Virus record (IMG/VR): IMGVR_UViG_2531839454_000015
Strand: one strand, 5' to 3'
Origin: a virus
Lineage: Duplodnaviria > Heunggongvirae > Uroviricota > Caudoviricetes
Length of the DNA: 16,661 bases
In this document: piece by piece, positions 900 to 8,263 of the stretch
How positions within the stretch are numbered: position 1 is the stretch's first letter
Layout of the letters: every line of letters begins with the position of its first letter
Position numbers and translations under genes: made by a program
Notes under the pieces: generated by a model
What the model was told of the DNA's origin: nothing
Seen by the model: the letters and a program-made list of their open reading frames with translations, nothing else
The model's database searches: none

Positions 900-960
900 C
901 TAAGAGGAGTTAAATTTTATACAGTATAATCATAATATTGCAGCAAGGTGGTTATAATTG
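900..960 (+). promoter_or_regulatory. AT-rich putative promoter region upstream of trkG
   Basis: TATAAT hexamers at 925-930 and 953-958 in a strongly AT-rich intergenic region. No convincing -35 with correct spacing was found, so this is only a candidate. Confidence 0.2.
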
Positions 961-975
961 AAAGAATATTTAGAT

Positions 976-2433
976 ATGAATACATCTCATGTAAGAGTTG
1001 TTACTCATATGTGTGGGTTCCTGGTTTGGCTCTATAGTCTTTCAATGTTGCCACCAATGGTTGTAGCATTGTTTTATAAAGAAAAAAGCCTGTTCGTTTT
1101 CTTTATAACTTTCGTTATATTTTTTTGCATTGGTGGCGGAGCGTGGTATACAACTAAGAAATCTGGCATTCAATTACGTACCCGTGATGGGTTTATTATA
1201 ATTGTAATGTTTTGGATTTTGTTTTCTGTTATTAGTGCATTCCCTTTATGGATTGACTCAGAACTTAATTTAACGTTCATTGATGCTCTGTTTGAAGGGG
1301 TTTCTGGAATAACAACAACAGGAGCAACTGTAATTGATGATGTTAGTTCATTACCTCGGGCATATTTGTACTATCGGTCACAGTTAAATTTTATAGGTGG
1401 TTTAGGAGTTATTGTTCTGGCGGTTGCTGTATTGCCATTATTGGGTATTGGTGGTGCAAAGCTTTATCAGTCAGAAATGCCGGGGCCATTTAAGGATGAC
1501 AAACTCACTCCCCGCCTGGCCGATACGTCACGGACACTGTGGATAACTTATTCTTTATTAGGTATTGCTTGTATTGTCTGTTATAGACTTGCAGGAATGC
1601 CTTTGTTTGATGCTATTTGTCACGGGATTTCCACAGTTTCGCTTGGTGGTTTCTCAACTCATAGCGAGAGTATCGGATATTTTAATAACTATTTGGTTGA
1701 GCTGGTGGCTGGTTCTTTTTCCCTGCTATCGGCTTTCAACTTCACTCTTTGGTATATTGTTATTAGCAGGAAAACGATAAAACCTTTAATCAGAGATATT
1801 GAACTTCGTTTCTTTCTGTTAATAGCCTTAGGGGTGATCATTGTTACCTCTTTCCAGGTCTGGCATATAGGTATGTATGACTTGCATGGAAGTTTTATTC
1901 ATTCGTTTTTTCTTGCCAGCTCCATGCTCACTGATAATGGTTTAGCTACGCAGGATTATGCAAGTTGGCCCACGCACACGATAGTGTTTTTGCTGTTGTC
2001 AAGTTTCTTTGGGGGATGTATAGGTTCAACTTGTGGTGGAATTAAGTCACTTCGATTTCTTATACTTTTCAAACAAAGCAAACACGAGATAAATCAGCTT
2101 TCTCATCCCAGAGCGTTGTTGAGTGTAAATGTAGGAGGGAAGATAGTTACAGATCGTGTAATGAGGTCTGTATGGAGTTTCTTTTTTCTTTATACTCTCT
2201 TCACGGTGTTTTTTATACTGGTGTTAAATGGTATGGGATATGATTTTCTTACATCATTTGCAACAGTGGCTGCATGTATTAATAATATGGGATTAGGTTT
2301 TGGGGCTACTGCATCGTCATTCGGAGTGCTTAATGACATTGCAAAATGTTTAATGTGCATAGCTATGATTCTTGGTCGCCTTGAAATTTATCCTGTTATT
2401 ATATTGTTTTCAGGTTTTTTTTGGCGCTCCTAA
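976..2433 (+). CDS. trkG: TrkG, Trk-system K+ uptake membrane protein (TrkH/TrkG family)
   Basis: 485 aa polytopic membrane protein starting MNTSHVRVVTHMCGFLVWLYSL, with repeated pore-loop-like glycine motifs (TTTGATV, GGFS, GGIKS). Recalled as the Rac-prophage trkG of E. coli. GC content is markedly lower than the flanks. The track ORF start at 958 is a TTG; ATG 976 gives the canonical N-terminus. Confidence 0.9.
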   Translation: MNTSHVRVVTHMCGFLVWLYSLSMLPPMVVALFYKEKSLFVFFITFVIFFCIGGGAWYTTKKSGIQLRTRDGFIIIVMFWILFSVISAFPLWIDSELNLTFIDALFEGVSGITTTGATVIDDVSSLPRAYLYYRSQLNFIGGLGVIVLAVAVLPLLGIGGAKLYQSEMPGPFKDDKLTPRLADTSRTLWITYSLLGIACIVCYRLAGMPLFDAICHGISTVSLGGFSTHSESIGYFNNYLVELVAGSFSLLSAFNFTLWYIVISRKTIKPLIRDIELRFFLLIALGVIIVTSFQVWHIGMYDLHGSFIHSFFLASSMLTDNGLATQDYASWPTHTIVFLLLSSFFGGCIGSTCGGIKSLRFLILFKQSKHEINQLSHPRALLSVNVGGKIVTDRVMRSVWSFFFLYTLFTVFFILVLNGMGYDFLTSFATVAACINNMGLGFGATASSFGVLNDIAKCLMCIAMILGRLEIYPVIILFSGFFWRS

Positions 2434-2519
2434 TATATGGCTGATTTATAATTGTGAGTTTAATATTATGTTGACTCACTCATTGATCCAATACCTAACT
2501 TTACCAGCAACCCCTCCGT

Positions 2520-2551
2520 CCCCAGTAGCACTGGCTGCTGGGGTGCGTTTT
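2520..2551 (+). terminator. Putative intrinsic terminator downstream of trkG
   Basis: Hairpin CCCCAGTAGC / ACTG loop / GCTGCTGGGG (10 bp stem with one G-U) followed by TGCGTTTTATT. It sits between the trkG stop and the ParB-like start. Confidence 0.4.
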
Positions 2552-2570
2552 ATTCATAAAGCAAGGCTGT

Positions 2571-3362
2571 ATGAGCGAGAAATTAAAGATAGTCTATCGC
2601 CCATTACAAGAATTGTCACCGTATGCGCACAACGCCAGGACGCACAGTACTGAGCAGGTGGCACAACTGGTAGAAAGTATTAAGCAATTCGGCTGGACTA
2701 ATCCGGTGCTGATTGACGAAAAGGGCGAAATTATTGCGGGTCACGGTCGTGTTATGGCGGCTGAAATGCTCAAAATGGATTCTGTTCCGGTCATTGTTCT
2801 GTCTGGCCTGACGGATGAGCAGAAAAAGGCGTACCGCCTGGCAGATAATCGCCTGCCGATGAATGCTGGCTGGGATGAAGATCTGTTGCGGATGGAGCTG
2901 TCGGACCTAATCAATGCTGATTTTGATGTCTCCCTGACAGGCTTCATCCCGACAGAAATTGATGAACTGTTGACGGATGTTTTGCCCGGTACAGGAAATG
3001 AGGAGGAGCCGTATACGACGAAAATTGATACGCCTGTTTATGAGCCGTCGGGCGGTAAACCGGATATCAGTGAACTGTACGACGATACGAAAACTCAGGA
3101 GCTGATCAGCCGGATACGTTCGGCGTCCCTTGAGCCTGATATTGAGAAATTCCTCCTGTGTGCGGCAGAACGTCACACGGTGTTTAATTTCAGCAGAATT
3201 GCGGACTATTACGCTCACGCCCCCTCTGAAATTCAGTGTTTTTTCGAGGAGTCGGCGCTGGTGATCATTGATTATCAGCAGGCTATTGAAAATGGATTTG
3301 TCCGGATGACGCAGCGCATGGTGGAGATCATGCATAGTGGTGAGGAGGAGGAATATGCGTGA
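2571..3362 (+). CDS. ParB/Srx N-terminal-domain protein (ParB-like nuclease/NTPase fold) with uncharacterised C-terminal half
   Basis: N-terminus has ParB-box-like motifs: IVYRPLQELSPYAHNART and IIAGHGRVMAA (the GxxRxxA arginine motif). 263 aa with an acidic tail. Possibly an intact counterpart of E. coli K-12 Rac ynaK, from memory. Confidence 0.8.
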   Translation: MSEKLKIVYRPLQELSPYAHNARTHSTEQVAQLVESIKQFGWTNPVLIDEKGEIIAGHGRVMAAEMLKMDSVPVIVLSGLTDEQKKAYRLADNRLPMNAGWDEDLLRMELSDLINADFDVSLTGFIPTEIDELLTDVLPGTGNEEEPYTTKIDTPVYEPSGGKPDISELYDDTKTQELISRIRSASLEPDIEKFLLCAAERHTVFNFSRIADYYAHAPSEIQCFFEESALVIIDYQQAIENGFVRMTQRMVEIMHSGEEEEYA

Positions 3363-4287
3363 TGATTTTTGCGCCTTTATTCTGACTCACGGGCGACCGG
3401 ACAAAGTTCTGACTTACCGGACGTTGCGTCGTGCTGGCTATACCGGGAAAATTTTTATCGTTGTTGATGATGAAGATAAGACACGGCATCAGTACATGGC
3501 TGAATTTGGTGAACAGGTGCTGGTGTTTTCCAAAGCCGATATCGCCAGTCGTTTTGACGAAGCCGATAATTTCTGTGACCGCCGCTCAATTTTTTACGCC
3601 CGTAATGCCTGTTTCGACCTGGCAAAACTGGTCGGGTGTAAATACTTCATTCAGCTCGATGATGATTATCACGAGTTCCAGTTTCGGGTGGATCGCAACT
3701 ATGACCAGGCCTATTTTCCGATAAGGAAACTGGATGCGATCCTTTCTGAAATGCTGGCGTACTACGAATCAATACCTGCTCTTTCCATCGCTATGTCGCA
3801 GGGCGGGGATTTTCTTGGTGACAATGGCGGCCATGCTTCGTGGGTGAAACGCAAGGCAATGAACAGCTTTATCTGTTCGGTTGATCGACCGTTCTCATTC
3901 ATGGGGCGCATTAACGAGGATGTGAATACGTACACGAATCTCGGTCGCTGTGGTGAATTGTTTATGACGATCGGTGCTGTCCAGTTAGGGCAGAAACAGA
4001 CGCAGAAAAACAGCGGCGGAATGACCGAGCTGTATCTGGATTCCGGAACCTACGTTAAAAGTTTTTACTCCGTCATGTATGCGCCGTCGTGCGTAAAAAT
4101 CTCACTGATGGGTGCCAGCCATAAACGCATTCACCATCAGGTCACCTGGAACAACGCTGCAGTAAAAATCCTTCACGAAAAATACAGGAAGAAGACACCC
4201 TGCATATCAATGGGGGTGACAAATGATTCCGTATTCGAAAGTCGAGTCTCTGGCAGCGTGCCGGATGACTGCACAACAAATCGCTGA
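3355..4287 (+). CDS. Soluble GT-A-fold (GT2-like) nucleotide-sugar transferase-like protein; function unknown
   Basis: ATG 3355 is preceded by the strong RBS GAGGAGGAGG and overlaps the ParB-like stop by 8 nt. The N-terminus FCAFILTHGRPD...GKIFIVVDDEDKT and a later FIQLDDDYHEF resemble the beta1/helix/EIIVVDD and DxD motifs of GT-A glycosyltransferases such as SpsA. No hydrophobic TM segment. Fold assignment is by eye only. Confidence 0.55.
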   Translation: MRDDFCAFILTHGRPDKVLTYRTLRRAGYTGKIFIVVDDEDKTRHQYMAEFGEQVLVFSKADIASRFDEADNFCDRRSIFYARNACFDLAKLVGCKYFIQLDDDYHEFQFRVDRNYDQAYFPIRKLDAILSEMLAYYESIPALSIAMSQGGDFLGDNGGHASWVKRKAMNSFICSVDRPFSFMGRINEDVNTYTNLGRCGELFMTIGAVQLGQKQTQKNSGGMTELYLDSGTYVKSFYSVMYAPSCVKISLMGASHKRIHHQVTWNNAAVKILHEKYRKKTPCISMGVTNDSVFESRVSGSVPDDCTTNR

Positions 4288-4474
4288 CGTTCTGGATGTT
4301 GATCTGAACCGACTGAAAGAAAATCGGGAAGCAATGACAGATTTTTATGCGGCCATCCGTAAGGGCAGAGCGAAAGGTGAAGCCGAGTTACGAGCGGCAT
4401 TGTTTAAGCTTGCCAGAAAAGGGGATGCCTTTGCTCTGCGCGAACTACTCAGGGTGGATAAAAATCAGGACTAA
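4223..4474 (+). CDS. Small hypothetical protein, possible HTH DNA-binding protein
   Basis: 83 aa ORF immediately upstream of the terminase small subunit. The TAQQIADVLDVDLNRL segment looks HTH-like. It overlaps the 3' end of the GT-A-like gene by 65 nt; an alternative start at ATG 4265 cuts the overlap to 23 nt. Confidence 0.45.
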   Translation: MIPYSKVESLAACRMTAQQIADVLDVDLNRLKENREAMTDFYAAIRKGRAKGEAELRAALFKLARKGDAFALRELLRVDKNQD

Positions 4475-4477
4475 CTG

Positions 4478-5572
4478 ATGAGCAGACCGGACTGGGGGGC
4501 GTTGCAGCAGGAGTATATTGCTGAATACACCCGCTCCGGTATATCTCCGGTGGCATGGTGTGAAGCAAGGGGACTGAATTACGCAACAGCCCGTCGTTAC
4601 ATCAAAAAAACTCCGAAAAATGCGCAGACAGAAATGTGCAAAACTGCGCAAAAAAGTGCGCAGAAAAAATCTGCGCAGACTGAACAAAAGCGGAACGAAA
4701 AATCTCAGGAAAAAAAGCCAGTATTCGATGCGGGCCTGAATGAGGGCGACGCGGAGGAATTTTCGTTCTGTCCCGATGAATTCGGCATTTCTGACCAGCA
4801 GGCTAAGTTTGCGATGCTTGTTGCTCAGGGTAAAAAGCCGACAGAGGCGTACCGACTAGCCGGTTATGAGGGGCAAGGTGCGACAGCTAACAGCAACGCC
4901 AGTCGTATGCTTAGAAATGCCAGGGTTTTTCGCGCTATCAGCTACTTCCGCAATCAGTACCAGAAACGCTATACCGCAGACCTGGATTTACTAGTGAGTC
5001 AGTTGATGGCTATTGTCCTGGCCGACCCCAATCAGCTTGCACAATTTCGCCGTGTTAACTGCCGTTATTGCTGGGGCGAGAATCATCTCTACCAGTGGCG
5101 CGATATAGCAGAATTCGACAAGGCAGCGGCGCAGGCTTCCAGAGATGGCAAACCCGAACCGGAATATGGAGGCCTCGGCTTTGTTGATAACGCCATACCC
5201 AATCCGGACTGCCCGAAGTGCTGCGGTGAGGGAACGGGACAGCTTTATATGGCTGATACCACTCTGCTTGATGGGGATGCGCGGCAATTATATGCAGGGG
5301 CAAAATTCGGAAAATTCGGCGTTGAGATCCTGCTGGAGGATAAGGCTGCCGCCCGGCGTGAATTGTTGCGTTTGTTTTCTGCTGGCGGGGCTTTATGTGC
5401 AGATAAACGGCTACAGGAACTGGAAATTGAACGGCGCAGAATGGAAAACCAGAAGCTGCGCAAAGAGATCGAAACGGTGGAAGATAATGAACATCCCCAG
5501 CCTGTGGCGATCAATATTAATGTGGTTGATGCCAGAGTAAGGAGTGATGAAGATGATCTCTCCGACGCTTAA
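4478..5572 (+). CDS. Terminase small subunit (Terminase_2-like), unusually long at 364 aa
   Basis: N-terminal HTH-like region, then the characteristic AYRLAGYEGQGATANSNASRMLRNARV motif of small terminase subunits. Sits directly upstream of the large subunit. Confidence 0.75.
   Translation: MSRPDWGALQQEYIAEYTRSGISPVAWCEARGLNYATARRYIKKTPKNAQTEMCKTAQKSAQKKSAQTEQKRNEKSQEKKPVFDAGLNEGDAEEFSFCPDEFGISDQQAKFAMLVAQGKKPTEAYRLAGYEGQGATANSNASRMLRNARVFRAISYFRNQYQKRYTADLDLLVSQLMAIVLADPNQLAQFRRVNCRYCWGENHLYQWRDIAEFDKAAAQASRDGKPEPEYGGLGFVDNAIPNPDCPKCCGEGTGQLYMADTTLLDGDARQLYAGAKFGKFGVEILLEDKAAARRELLRLFSAGGALCADKRLQELEIERRRMENQKLRKEIETVEDNEHPQPVAININVVDARVRSDEDDLSDA
4621..4677 (+). repeat. Array of five palindromic TG(C/T)GCA hexamers inside the terminase small subunit gene
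   Basis: TGCGCA at 4621, 4645, 4657 and 4672, and TGTGCA at 4636, with spacings of 15, 9, 12 and 15 nt (all in-frame). They encode the low-complexity K/T-A-Q stretch NAQTEMCKTAQKSAQKKSAQTEQ. Confidence 0.5.
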
Positions 5573-6854
5573 TGTGCCTCAGGCGCGATTTCTTTCAATG
5601 CCCCATAAATTTAAAGCCTATATTGCTGGTTTTGGCTCGGGCAAAACATGGGTTGGGTGTGGCGGCATATGCAAGGGGATTTGGGAGCATCCAGGTATAA
5701 ATCAGGGATATTTTGCGCCAACGTATCCCCAAATTCGCGATATTTTTTACCCTACAGTGGAAGAAGTTGCTGCTGACTGGGGATTGAACGTAAAAATTAA
5801 TGAGGGAAATAAAGAGGTTCACTTTTATTACGGACGTCAGTATCGGGGAACCACTATCTGCAGATCGATGGAGAAGCCACAAACGATCGTCGGTTTCAAA
5901 ATTGGTAATGCGTTGGTGGATGAACTGGACATTTTGCCGAAGGAAAAAGCCAGAACGGCGTGGCGCAAGATAATTGCACGTATGCGTTATAAGATTGATG
6001 GACTTCGCAACGGTATTGACGTTACAACCACGCCGGAAGGATTCAAATTTGTCTACGAGCAGTTTGTTAAAGCCGTGCGTGAAAAAACAGAGCTGGCCTC
6101 ACTGTATGGTCTGGTGCAGGCATCTACTTTCGATAATGAAAAGAACCTGCCAGCAGATTACATTCCTTCGCTTCTTGAATCATACCCTCCAGAGCTGATT
6201 AAAGCCTATCTTCGAGGACAGTTTACTAACCTGACAAGTGGTACTGTTTACCATCAGTTTGACCGGAAACTGAATAATTGCGAAGAAGTGGAGCAGCCAG
6301 GGGAGCCGATTTATATTGGGATGGATTTTAACGTTGGAAAGATGGCGGGAATCGTCCATGTGCTGCGTTTGGGGCTTCCATGTGCGGTAACTGAAATCAT
6401 CAATGCCTACGATACGCCGGATATGATCCGCATCATTAAAGAACGCTTCTGGCTGTATGATGGGAATGATTACCGGAAAGTGAGGGAAATTTATATTTAT
6501 CCAGATGCTTCCGGGGATTCCAGAAAATCAAGTAACGCAAGTACGACGGATATAGCCCAGCTTAAGCAGGCTGGTTTTAACGTTGTGGTGAACAGCTCGA
6601 ACCCGCCAGTAAAAGATCGCGTTAACTCAATGAATGCAATGTTCTGCAATGCCAATGGTGAGCGTCGCTATAAAGTTAATGTGAAGCGTTGCCCGTTATA
6701 TGCCGAATCTCTGGAGCAACAGGTCTGGGATGAGAAGGGGGAGCCTGATAAAAAATCTGGCAATGATCACCCGAATGATGCCGGAGGTTATTTCATCGTT
6801 AAGCAATTCCCTATTGTCAAACCGACCGGAAGAGTCACATCACTTCGGATTTAA
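5553..6854 (+). CDS. Terminase large subunit (ATPase/nuclease)
   Basis: Walker A motif AGFGSGKT near the N-terminus. RBS AAGGAG at 5539-5544 precedes ATG 5553. About 433 aa, following the small subunit. Confidence 0.85.
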   Translation: MISPTLNVPQARFLSMPHKFKAYIAGFGSGKTWVGCGGICKGIWEHPGINQGYFAPTYPQIRDIFYPTVEEVAADWGLNVKINEGNKEVHFYYGRQYRGTTICRSMEKPQTIVGFKIGNALVDELDILPKEKARTAWRKIIARMRYKIDGLRNGIDVTTTPEGFKFVYEQFVKAVREKTELASLYGLVQASTFDNEKNLPADYIPSLLESYPPELIKAYLRGQFTNLTSGTVYHQFDRKLNNCEEVEQPGEPIYIGMDFNVGKMAGIVHVLRLGLPCAVTEIINAYDTPDMIRIIKERFWLYDGNDYRKVREIYIYPDASGDSRKSSNASTTDIAQLKQAGFNVVVNSSNPPVKDRVNSMNAMFCNANGERRYKVNVKRCPLYAESLEQQVWDEKGEPDKKSGNDHPNDAGGYFIVKQFPIVKPTGRVTSLRI

Positions 6855-6856
6855 TT

Positions 6857-8263
6857 ATGGCTGATATATCAACACCCAACCTCGACTATAACGATATGCT
6901 GGAGGCGTGGGATATTAACGACGCACTGATGGGCGGTACGCTTGAAATGCGCAGGCAGGGGGAAAATTATCTCCCAAAATGGCCTAACGAAGATGAAGAC
7001 GCTTATAAAAAACGCCTGTCTGTGGCTACGCTACTTCCTGTGTATGAAGAAAGCATCAAGCAAAATATTGGGCGCATATTTGCAGAGCCGACAGTATTGA
7101 GTGAGGAAACGCCGGCAAAAATCAGGGAATATGCAGAAAATATCGACATGGAGGGGAGCCGACTGGATGTGTGGGCGCAGCAATTTTTCAGCCTCGCATT
7201 TCAGTATGGTGTGGCACATGCGCTGGTGGACTATCCACGAACGGATATGAAAGAGATTCGTACAAAAGCCGATGAAAACGCGACCGGTGGTCGTCCGTAC
7301 GTTACGATGCTGAATCCACGCCAGGTTATTGGATGGAAATCGAAAGTTGAAAAAGGGAAAGTTGTTCTCACTGATTTGCGTATAAAAGAGGTCATCATTA
7401 TTGATGGTGATGATTTCGGGCAGAAGAAGGTGGAGCAGATCCGCCATATTATGCCCCGTCGAGTTGAAATTTATCGACGTAGCGAAGGCACTAATGGCGA
7501 ATCTGTCTGGACGCTTCATGAGTCATGGAATACCAGCCGTGATGATATTCCTCTGGTAACACTGTACACGAAGAAAACAGGATTTATGCGTGGTACACCG
7601 CCATTGCTTAATCTTGGCTTGCTGAATATCAAGCACTGGCAAAGCCAGAGCGAGCAGGACAATATTCTTCATGTTACCCGCGTTCCATTGCTGGTGGCCT
7701 ACGGGCTGGACAGGAATGAAGAACTGACGGTTGGTGCATCCACCGCTACGATTTTTGAGGACAGAACAAAAAATGGCCTCGAATATGTTGAACATAGTGG
7801 CGCAGCGATAGAATCTGGCGAAACATCACTTGAGAAGCTGGAAAATCAGATGCGTCATGCCGGCGCTAAACTTCTGCGTGCTGAAAATACATCCACCAAA
7901 TCTGTTGATCAGACTAATGAAGAGCGAATGCAGGAAAACTCGCCGCTTTATACAATGGCGAACTCCCTCGAAGATGCCCTCGATAATATTCTCCAGATAA
8001 TGGCGGAATGGATCGGAGAGAGTTGCGGTGGCAATGTGGATGTGCGCACTGAACTGGATGTATCTGCCCAGGTGTTTGACTCATCCTCCGCGCTGGCTGT
8101 TCAGTCATTGCGTCAGGGCGGTGATATACGTCAGATTGATGCGGTTCGGGTGTTGCAGGCGTTGAAATTTATCGATCAGGATTCCCGTCCAGAGGAAGTG
8201 ATCGATGAATTAAAAAATCAGAGTGTAATGCTGATGGAAATCAATGATGCAAACCGTGAATGA
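6857..8263 (+). CDS. Portal protein (putative)
   Basis: 468 aa ORF translationally coupled to the terminase large subunit (stop TAA, then TT, then ATG). Called by synteny (TerL, portal, MuF-like, scaffold, capsid) and size; no motif confirmation. Confidence 0.6.
   Translation: MADISTPNLDYNDMLEAWDINDALMGGTLEMRRQGENYLPKWPNEDEDAYKKRLSVATLLPVYEESIKQNIGRIFAEPTVLSEETPAKIREYAENIDMEGSRLDVWAQQFFSLAFQYGVAHALVDYPRTDMKEIRTKADENATGGRPYVTMLNPRQVIGWKSKVEKGKVVLTDLRIKEVIIIDGDDFGQKKVEQIRHIMPRRVEIYRRSEGTNGESVWTLHESWNTSRDDIPLVTLYTKKTGFMRGTPPLLNLGLLNIKHWQSQSEQDNILHVTRVPLLVAYGLDRNEELTVGASTATIFEDRTKNGLEYVEHSGAAIESGETSLEKLENQMRHAGAKLLRAENTSTKSVDQTNEERMQENSPLYTMANSLEDALDNILQIMAEWIGESCGGNVDVRTELDVSAQVFDSSSALAVQSLRQGGDIRQIDAVRVLQALKFIDQDSRPEEVIDELKNQSVMLMEINDANRE

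Follow-up and report, generated by a model that had tools for sequence, protein, structure and literature searches.

We sought to explain why a small terminase gene in an E. coli prophage carries a cluster of nearly identical hexamers within its coding sequence, and whether these hexamers serve the protein that the gene encodes or act as DNA. The whole stretch of DNA that was analysed, hereafter the window, is 16,661 nucleotides long and comes from a Rac-type lambdoid prophage of E. coli. The genes around the cluster are the following.

958-2433: trkG, a moron
2571-3362: ynaK homologue, ParB/Srx-like
3337-4287: TET-associated glycosyltransferase-like gene (PF20691; phrog_842)
4223-4474: 83-aa ORF directly upstream of terS
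4478-5572, plus strand: terS, the small terminase gene, an ORF of 364 aa with Pfam Terminase_2 at aa 122-321 and a full-length match to phrog_51
5544-6854, plus strand: terL, the large terminase and presumed nuclease/motor, with Pfam Terminase_6N and Terminase_6C
6857-8263: portal

The terS product is labelled 'terminase small subunit' in RefSeq, and Pfam PF03592 (Terminase_2) matches aa 122-321 with 34.6 bits against a gathering cut-off of 26.1. The head module runs in the order terS, terL, portal, Mu-F-like minor head protein and P22-type capsid gene, and we take the combination of a Terminase_2 TerS, a Terminase_6 TerL, a portal and a Mu-F-like protein to be the kind expected of headful packagers. 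The terS region was present in 906 of 5,426 complete E. coli genomes (about 1 in 6) and in several induced-phage records. Relatives of terS were found in Klebsiella, Yersinia, Serratia, Providencia, Aeromonas and Pasteurella phages, and those of TerL in Jersey-like and HK578-like siphophages. The interval from the lysis genes to terS (958-4287) contains the trkG moron, the ParB/Srx-like gene and the glycosyltransferase-like gene, which could form a DNA-modification module or a remnant of one; no TET/JBP dioxygenase was visible within the window. The 83-aa ORF at 4223-4474 matches positions 145-218 of 319 in phrog_309, another small-terminase family (E=8e-23), and may be what is left of a terS that was displaced, or else encode a small accessory protein.

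The hexamers themselves occupy the following positions in terS.

4621-4626, no strand assigned: hexamer 1, TGCGCA, codon phase 2, Asn-Ala-Gln
4635-4640, plus strand: hexamer 2, TGTGCA, degenerate here, codon phase 1, Met-Cys-Lys (ATG TGC AAA)
4645-4650, no strand assigned: hexamer 3, TGCGCA, phase 2, Thr-Ala-Gln
4657-4662, no strand assigned: hexamer 4, TGCGCA, phase 2, Ser-Ala-Gln
4672-4677, no strand assigned: hexamer 5, TGCGCA, phase 2, Ser-Ala-Gln
4681-4686, plus strand: decayed sixth slot, TGAACA, which is TGCGCA or TGCACA in relatives

A sequence-only reading of this locus had described five clustered copies with A-rich spacers inside the small terminase gene, and in this it was right: all five lie within 57 bp of the ORF at 4478-5572, and the spacers are A-rich. 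It had given the spacings as 15, 9, 12 and 15, which need correction to 14, 10, 12 and 15 from start to start. Its description of the copies as in-frame applies to the four TGCGCA hexamers, which share one phase (NNT GCG CAR, read as x-Ala-Gln), while TGTGCA stands in another; likewise, TGCGCA is self-complementary and TGTGCA is not a palindrome. The array in the window contains two eroded slots. The array is real and non-random. Within 52 bp it holds 4 of the 10 TGCGCA sites in the window, a concentration with a probability of about 3e-5 under uniform placement, and when the same peptide was encoded with codons resampled from the usage of the window, a mean of 0.41 TGCGCA was obtained against the 4 observed (P≈1e-4). 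Multiple copies sit in the 5' third of the small-terminase gene, with up to six in close relatives and up to ten family-wide. Between 4678 and 4821 we found no further TGCGCA-like site and no second cluster of the P1 kind. Outside the array, words with at most one mismatch to TGCGCA were rarer than in shuffled sequence (83 against 102±8, with 199 of 200 shuffles giving 83 or more), a deficit that might mean that pseudo-sites are avoided. Through 4604-4717, runs of 5-7 A come every ~10-14 bp, with A8 runs in some relatives, and could confer intrinsic DNA curvature or act as slippage-prone tracts.

Relatives were collected by TerS similarity, taking one genome per species together with IMG/VR. 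In most relatives of the E. coli clade the site at 4635 is TGCGCA, read as Met-Arg-Lys, and a sixth copy occupies the slot that is TGAACA in the window. Relatives from Serratia, Buttiauxella, Superficieibacter and Aeromonas retain 4-7 copies and between them use all three codon phases. The position of the array is unchanged even where TerS is only 52-55% identical, as in Superficieibacter (four copies), Serratia fonticola (five copies, in phases 2,1,2,1,2) and Buttiauxella (four copies, in phases 2,2,1,0). Over the non-redundant arrays, 236 hexamers were in phase 2, 45 in phase 1 and 6 in phase 0, and the peptides that they encode differ between copies (Met-Arg-Lys, Cys-Ala-Val, Ala-Asn-Ser-Gln). 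Synonymous recoding gave P<=1e-4 in all 12 of 12 tests on distant lineages, among them P1 pac as a positive control. Since the hexamers are kept across genera in all three codon phases while the peptide has diverged, selection acts on the DNA and not on the peptide; nucleotide conservation beyond what the protein needs, which the earlier reading had named as one check on its proposal, is what we observed. Within the E. coli clade, a shallow one, the difference between hexamer and spacer columns was modest, with 19% and 29% of them variable, respectively. Whole units have been gained or lost between close relatives (L078-L080), so slippage shapes the copy number; it does not explain the copies that stand in other phases.

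The protein encoded around the array is divided as follows.

4478-4609, plus strand: HTH domain of three helices at the N-terminus, aa 1-44, added to the Terminase_2 body
4580-4606, plus strand: predicted recognition helix, aa 35-43, YATARRYIK, with the Arg39 codon at 4592-4594
4610-4840, plus strand: Lys/Ala/Gln-rich linker, aa 45-121, as translated, containing the array; pLDDT <50 for aa 42-105
4841-5440, plus strand: Terminase_2 body with its own HTH, an oligomerisation region and a Cys-rich insert

An exhaustive search of cluster representatives with the aa 1-44 domain returned 190 of them at E<=1e-3, nearly all carrying it at the N-terminus of proteins of 200-380 aa. The domain occurs on at least two unrelated TerS bodies, phrog_51/Terminase_2 and phrog_370, and distant TerS homologues from Acinetobacter and Collimonas are without the N-terminal extension. 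The body of TerS is related to the TerS proteins of F116, which we take to be a generalised transducer, Bcep22 and PEp14. A single-sequence AF2 model placed helices at residues 6-20, 24-30 and 35-43 with low confidence; as the mean pLDDT of the whole TerS was 44.6, the model was used for these three N-terminal helices only. Pfam found no HTH family in TerS aa 1-103, and a word-indexed protein search with the 46-aa HTH returned short E. coli fragments only, with no domain context. In a sequence search of the PDB, TerS gave only a marginal match, of the Terminase_2 HTH to Pam5 TerS, and TerL gave none. The Cys-rich motifs NCRYCWGE ... NPDCPKCCGEG at ~5057-5230 (TerS aa 194-250), which also occur in the Acinetobacter and Collimonas homologues, look like a zinc-ribbon insertion within the Terminase_2 body. 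In three further proteins (P0039, P0090 and P0120) a related HTH with the motif 'SGxSxxxWCxxxGI' is repeated 4-7 times in tandem; in our view it resembles the HTHs of insertion-sequence OrfA type.

The link between this domain and the hexamers also emerged from the DNA side. When IMG/VR was scanned blindly for triplets of TGCGCA separated by short gaps, at least 120 loci were obtained; among the matches listed, many of the arrays with the highest density (4-7 copies in 90 bp) lay directly 3' of an aa 1-44 homologue. Such HTH-linked arrays occur even where the rest of TerS is 35-40% identical or unrelated. Across the family the first hexamer starts a median of 5 nt after codon 44, and the arrays comprise 4-10 copies with spacings of mostly 7-16 bp and the extended consensus AAAnTGCGCArA.

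The hexamer is not the same in all members of the family, and its changes follow a single residue of the adjacent HTH. Among 70 distinct HTH variants, Arg39 was accompanied by TGCGCA in 55 of 55 cases and Lys39 by TGCGAA or TTCGCA in 14 of 14; the single His39 variant, a near-identical E. coli form, had TGCGCA. In a subset of 30 unique HTHs picked by protein similarity alone, the counts were 21 of 21 for Arg39 with TGCGCA and 8 of 8 for Lys39 with TGCGAA. The reciprocal DNA scan for TGCGAA arrays yielded nine more HTH-linked arrays, all with Lys39. Residue 39 is the sole position of helix 3 that is perfectly partitioned by hexamer type. Klebsiella phage RothC, Providencia phage PSTCR3, Yersinia phage vB_YenM_29.18 and Pasteurella phage Pmp11 have an HTH ending in ...AKRYIK and carry TGCGAA/TTCGCA at the same place, while Aeromonas phage phiARM81mr, with the ending ...ARRYLK, carries seven TGCGCA. 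Both hexamer types were found on both the phrog_51 and the phrog_370 bodies; the hexamer therefore follows residue 39 of the HTH and not the body of TerS. Because the HTH adjoins the array, part of this covariation could be due to co-inheritance and not to recognition. Repeated switches on backgrounds that are nearly identical meet this objection in part. Some Lys39 variants are 100% identical to Arg39 variants over aa 1-34, and the Pasteurellaceae Lys39 clade, which has TGCGAA, is only 53-59% identical to any Arg39 form; the sequences suggest at least two to three separate switches at residue 39, or exchanges of the cassette.

At ~550-590 of locus L321, TGCGAA and TGCGCA abut directly (TGCGAATGCGCA, twice) in a mixed array that comes after an HTH ending in ...STAKRHIKI. 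A different N-terminal domain, MSKPDEKAIERDF...ITIKALRYMAGK, stands in the TerS proteins of L007 (564-900), L008 and L302-L318 (~1610-1700), and it occurs in Erwinia, in Izhakiella and in 17 IMG/VR contigs. In arrays of this Erwinia/Izhakiella type, the linker-coding DNA contains 2-4 GGGGCA followed by 1-3 inverted TGCCCC in mixed phases, which is a second instance of the design in which an N-terminal domain is joined to an array. Escherichia phage Rac-SA53 (L219, 1351-2379) represents a natural loss of the domain, a deletion having fused terS to the upstream gene and removed the HTH. Here 3 of 5 remaining hexamer slots are mutated (TTCGCA, TGCGCT, TGCCCA), in this single case a divergence similar to that found elsewhere in the gene.

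The closest precedent for this arrangement is phage P1, whose hexamer pac has long been known (PMC11260489). According to the annotation of AF234172, the P1 pac site within pacA consists of four TGATCA hexamers, an IHF site, mapped cleavage positions and three more hexamers. Aligned by HHalign to P1 PacA aa 3-41, the HTH profile gave a probability of 92-93% and E≈5e-7 over 38-39 ungapped columns, for what is a short domain of a common fold. Pairwise BLASTP between TerS and PacA gave a weak E=0.046 and no similarity outside the HTH, and the PacA N-terminus itself had sub-threshold matches to HTH_23 and HTH_28. These comparisons make a common ancestry of the TerS HTH and the N-terminal part of P1 PacA probable. 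At both loci a short, mostly palindromic hexamer is repeated several times within the 5' portion of the small-terminase gene, just after the codons of an N-terminal HTH. The spacings are similar (7-15 bp), and the hexamers at both loci stand mostly in phase 2 with some in phase 1, encode drifting peptides and exceed what synonymous recoding produces. Cronobacter phage JK004 has a PacA that is 70% identical, and in its gene the TGATCA hexamers have stayed in place while the peptide has completely changed. The two loci also differ in several respects. P1 has seven TGATCA/G, whereas the hexamers here are TGCGCA or TGCGAA without GATC, and Dam methylation therefore cannot control this array. In P1 the 4+3 hexamers flank an IHF site and the cut, whereas here there is one cluster of 4-6, so the position of a cut cannot be predicted from the P1 geometry. 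The P1 array begins ~70 nt after the HTH codons, against 11 nt here; the protein body is phrog_1711 in P1 and the unrelated Terminase_2/phrog_51 here; and a P1-like myophage is compared with a lambdoid siphophage.

Other packaging systems share parts of this layout. In lambda, the winged HTH at the N-terminus of gpNu1 binds the repeated R-sites of cosB, which are near the gene for gpNu1. Both systems combine such a domain of the small terminase with several repeated sites near the gene that encodes it, but the lambda sites lie outside the coding region and belong to a cos system that is IHF-dependent and has a GpA-type TerL, whereas the array here is inside the coding sequence and TerL is of the Terminase_6N/6C type. 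G1P of SPP1/SF6 resembles the present TerS in its body, which is Pfam Terminase_2, and the pac of these phages also overlaps the terS region and is contacted at multiple points in A-rich DNA (PMC9611059). The SPP1 system, however, is without the extra N-terminal HTH and without an exact multi-copy hexamer, and in vitro the SPP1/SF6 TerS is reported to bind weakly and largely non-specifically (PMC9611059). P22, an enterobacterial headful phage, likewise has its pac inside the small-terminase gene, gene 3 (PMC9611059, PMC11260489), but as a single asymmetric 22-bp site with a TerS of another family, in contrast to the repeated hexamer array described here. A 'wobble' mutant, in which the P22 pac was recoded, is described in PMC11260489.

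If slippage or duplication in a K/A/Q linker of low complexity were the whole origin of the repeats, they would have no function as DNA. The region does encode a disordered Lys/Ala/Gln linker, and units come and go among close relatives such as those mentioned above. Against this account, the recoding test gave P<=1e-4 in every lineage, copies in other codon phases encode different peptides, and the hexamers stay while the peptide diverges; we consider it extremely improbable. The same applies to the linker that the earlier reading had offered as its alternative to a pac site: the DNA does encode it, as that reading had said of a K/T-A-Q linker, but a linker alone cannot explain the pattern. 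A role as hairpins in mRNA or single-stranded DNA, affecting translation or stability, draws on the predicted fold of RNA 4600-4720, which reaches -27.5 kcal/mol (z = -3.5 against shuffles) with the hexamers pairing together, and on the mutual complementarity of the GGGGCA and TGCCCC sets. Yet the Pasteurellaceae arrays, with up to eight direct TGCGAA and few or no inverted partners, cannot pair, copy number and spacing vary freely, and an RNA model does not predict the covariation with Arg/Lys39. The folding result alone is compatible with this reading, and it is mainly on the direct-repeat Pasteurellaceae arrays that we reject it as very unlikely.

Two further explanations accept the hexamers as protein-binding sites. 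They could belong to another factor, be it a regulator of the host or of the phage or an enzyme that modifies or restricts DNA, as TGCGCA is a 6-bp palindrome of the type II restriction kind, ParB-like and glycosyltransferase-like genes lie just upstream, and words resembling TGCGCA are slightly underrepresented in the rest of the window. We regard this as unlikely, since the hexamer tracks residue 39 of the adjacent HTH in hosts from Aeromonas to Pasteurella and changes completely with a different N-terminal domain, and since the upstream genes are not conserved beside the arrays of other phages. Alternatively, the HTH itself could bind the array for a purpose other than packaging, namely autoregulation of terS and terL as a roadblock or operator, with packaging starting elsewhere. 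All of the evidence for binding sites fits any function of HTH binding, and there is one hexamer cluster here against two in P1; autoregulation therefore keeps some weight. It is nevertheless a minor possibility in our judgement, given that the probable homologue PacA uses equivalent hexamers as pac and that the cassette moves between unrelated TerS bodies, as would be expected of a packaging-specificity module. DNA recognition for packaging is, moreover, the known role of TerS DNA-binding domains.

We therefore consider it likely that the array comprises the cognate sites of the N-terminal HTH of TerS (aa 1-44) and serves as the pac recognition site. A TerS-binding site of pac type had been called plausible on the letters alone; the phase-independent conservation, the adjacency of the HTH, the switch at residue 39 and the likeness to PacA all lend weight to that proposal, in which the pac function itself is suggested by analogy. 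In the mechanism that we propose, TerS would oligomerise through its Terminase_2 body, and several HTHs on flexible, Lys-rich linkers of ~75 residues would bind the 4-6 closely spaced TGCGCA sites, giving specific, high-avidity capture of phage concatemers. TerL (5544-6854) would then cut near the array, and headful packaging would proceed, probably rightward into the head genes. Within the recognition helix, residue 39 would read hexamer position 5, Arg going with C and Lys with A. We infer the binding, the oligomer avidity, the cut position and the direction of packaging alike. Because no more than ~100 bp separate the recognition helix from its sites, the two would move together between TerS bodies as a specificity cassette. 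On balance we lean towards the broader view that an HTH and an array of its own hexamers, within ~100 bp downstream, form a portable packaging-specificity cassette that is common to P1 PacA and at least two unrelated TerS families and in which one residue reads one base.

Our literature search found no paper linking TGCGCA to a phage terminase and no pac site of Rac-type phages, and the Yersinia phage paper contained no analysis of ends. A boundary ~3.8 kb upstream of terS, common to the GenBank record vB_EcoS-606R9 and similar ones, is probably an assembly break and uninformative on pac. Compared with P1 pac, the features that are new here are another hexamer, the lack of Dam control, a single cluster, another terminase body and a wide distribution, to which is added an apparent specificity rule, read from sequence covariation, of one residue for one base. 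The P1 pac site has already been used as a tag for engineered transducing particles.

For P22, Sf6, SPP1 and SF6, binding of TerS in vitro is weak and largely sequence-independent, and specific recognition of pac is poorly understood (PMC9611059, a 2022 review). The HTH/array family offers a simple testable case, with a separate small HTH, 4-10 exact hexamers directly downstream and a natural switch between Arg39 and Lys39. If our interpretation is true, it would provide a tractable system for sequence-specific recognition of pac by TerS, and it would explain why pac sites lie inside terS genes, because the reader and its site would be inseparable by recombination. Pac sites and the start points of lateral transduction would also become predictable from sequence in many enterobacterial, Aeromonas and Pasteurellaceae prophages. 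The rule could thus predict where packaging starts and which way lateral transduction runs from prophages, and indicate minimal pac tags with which transducing particles could be engineered.
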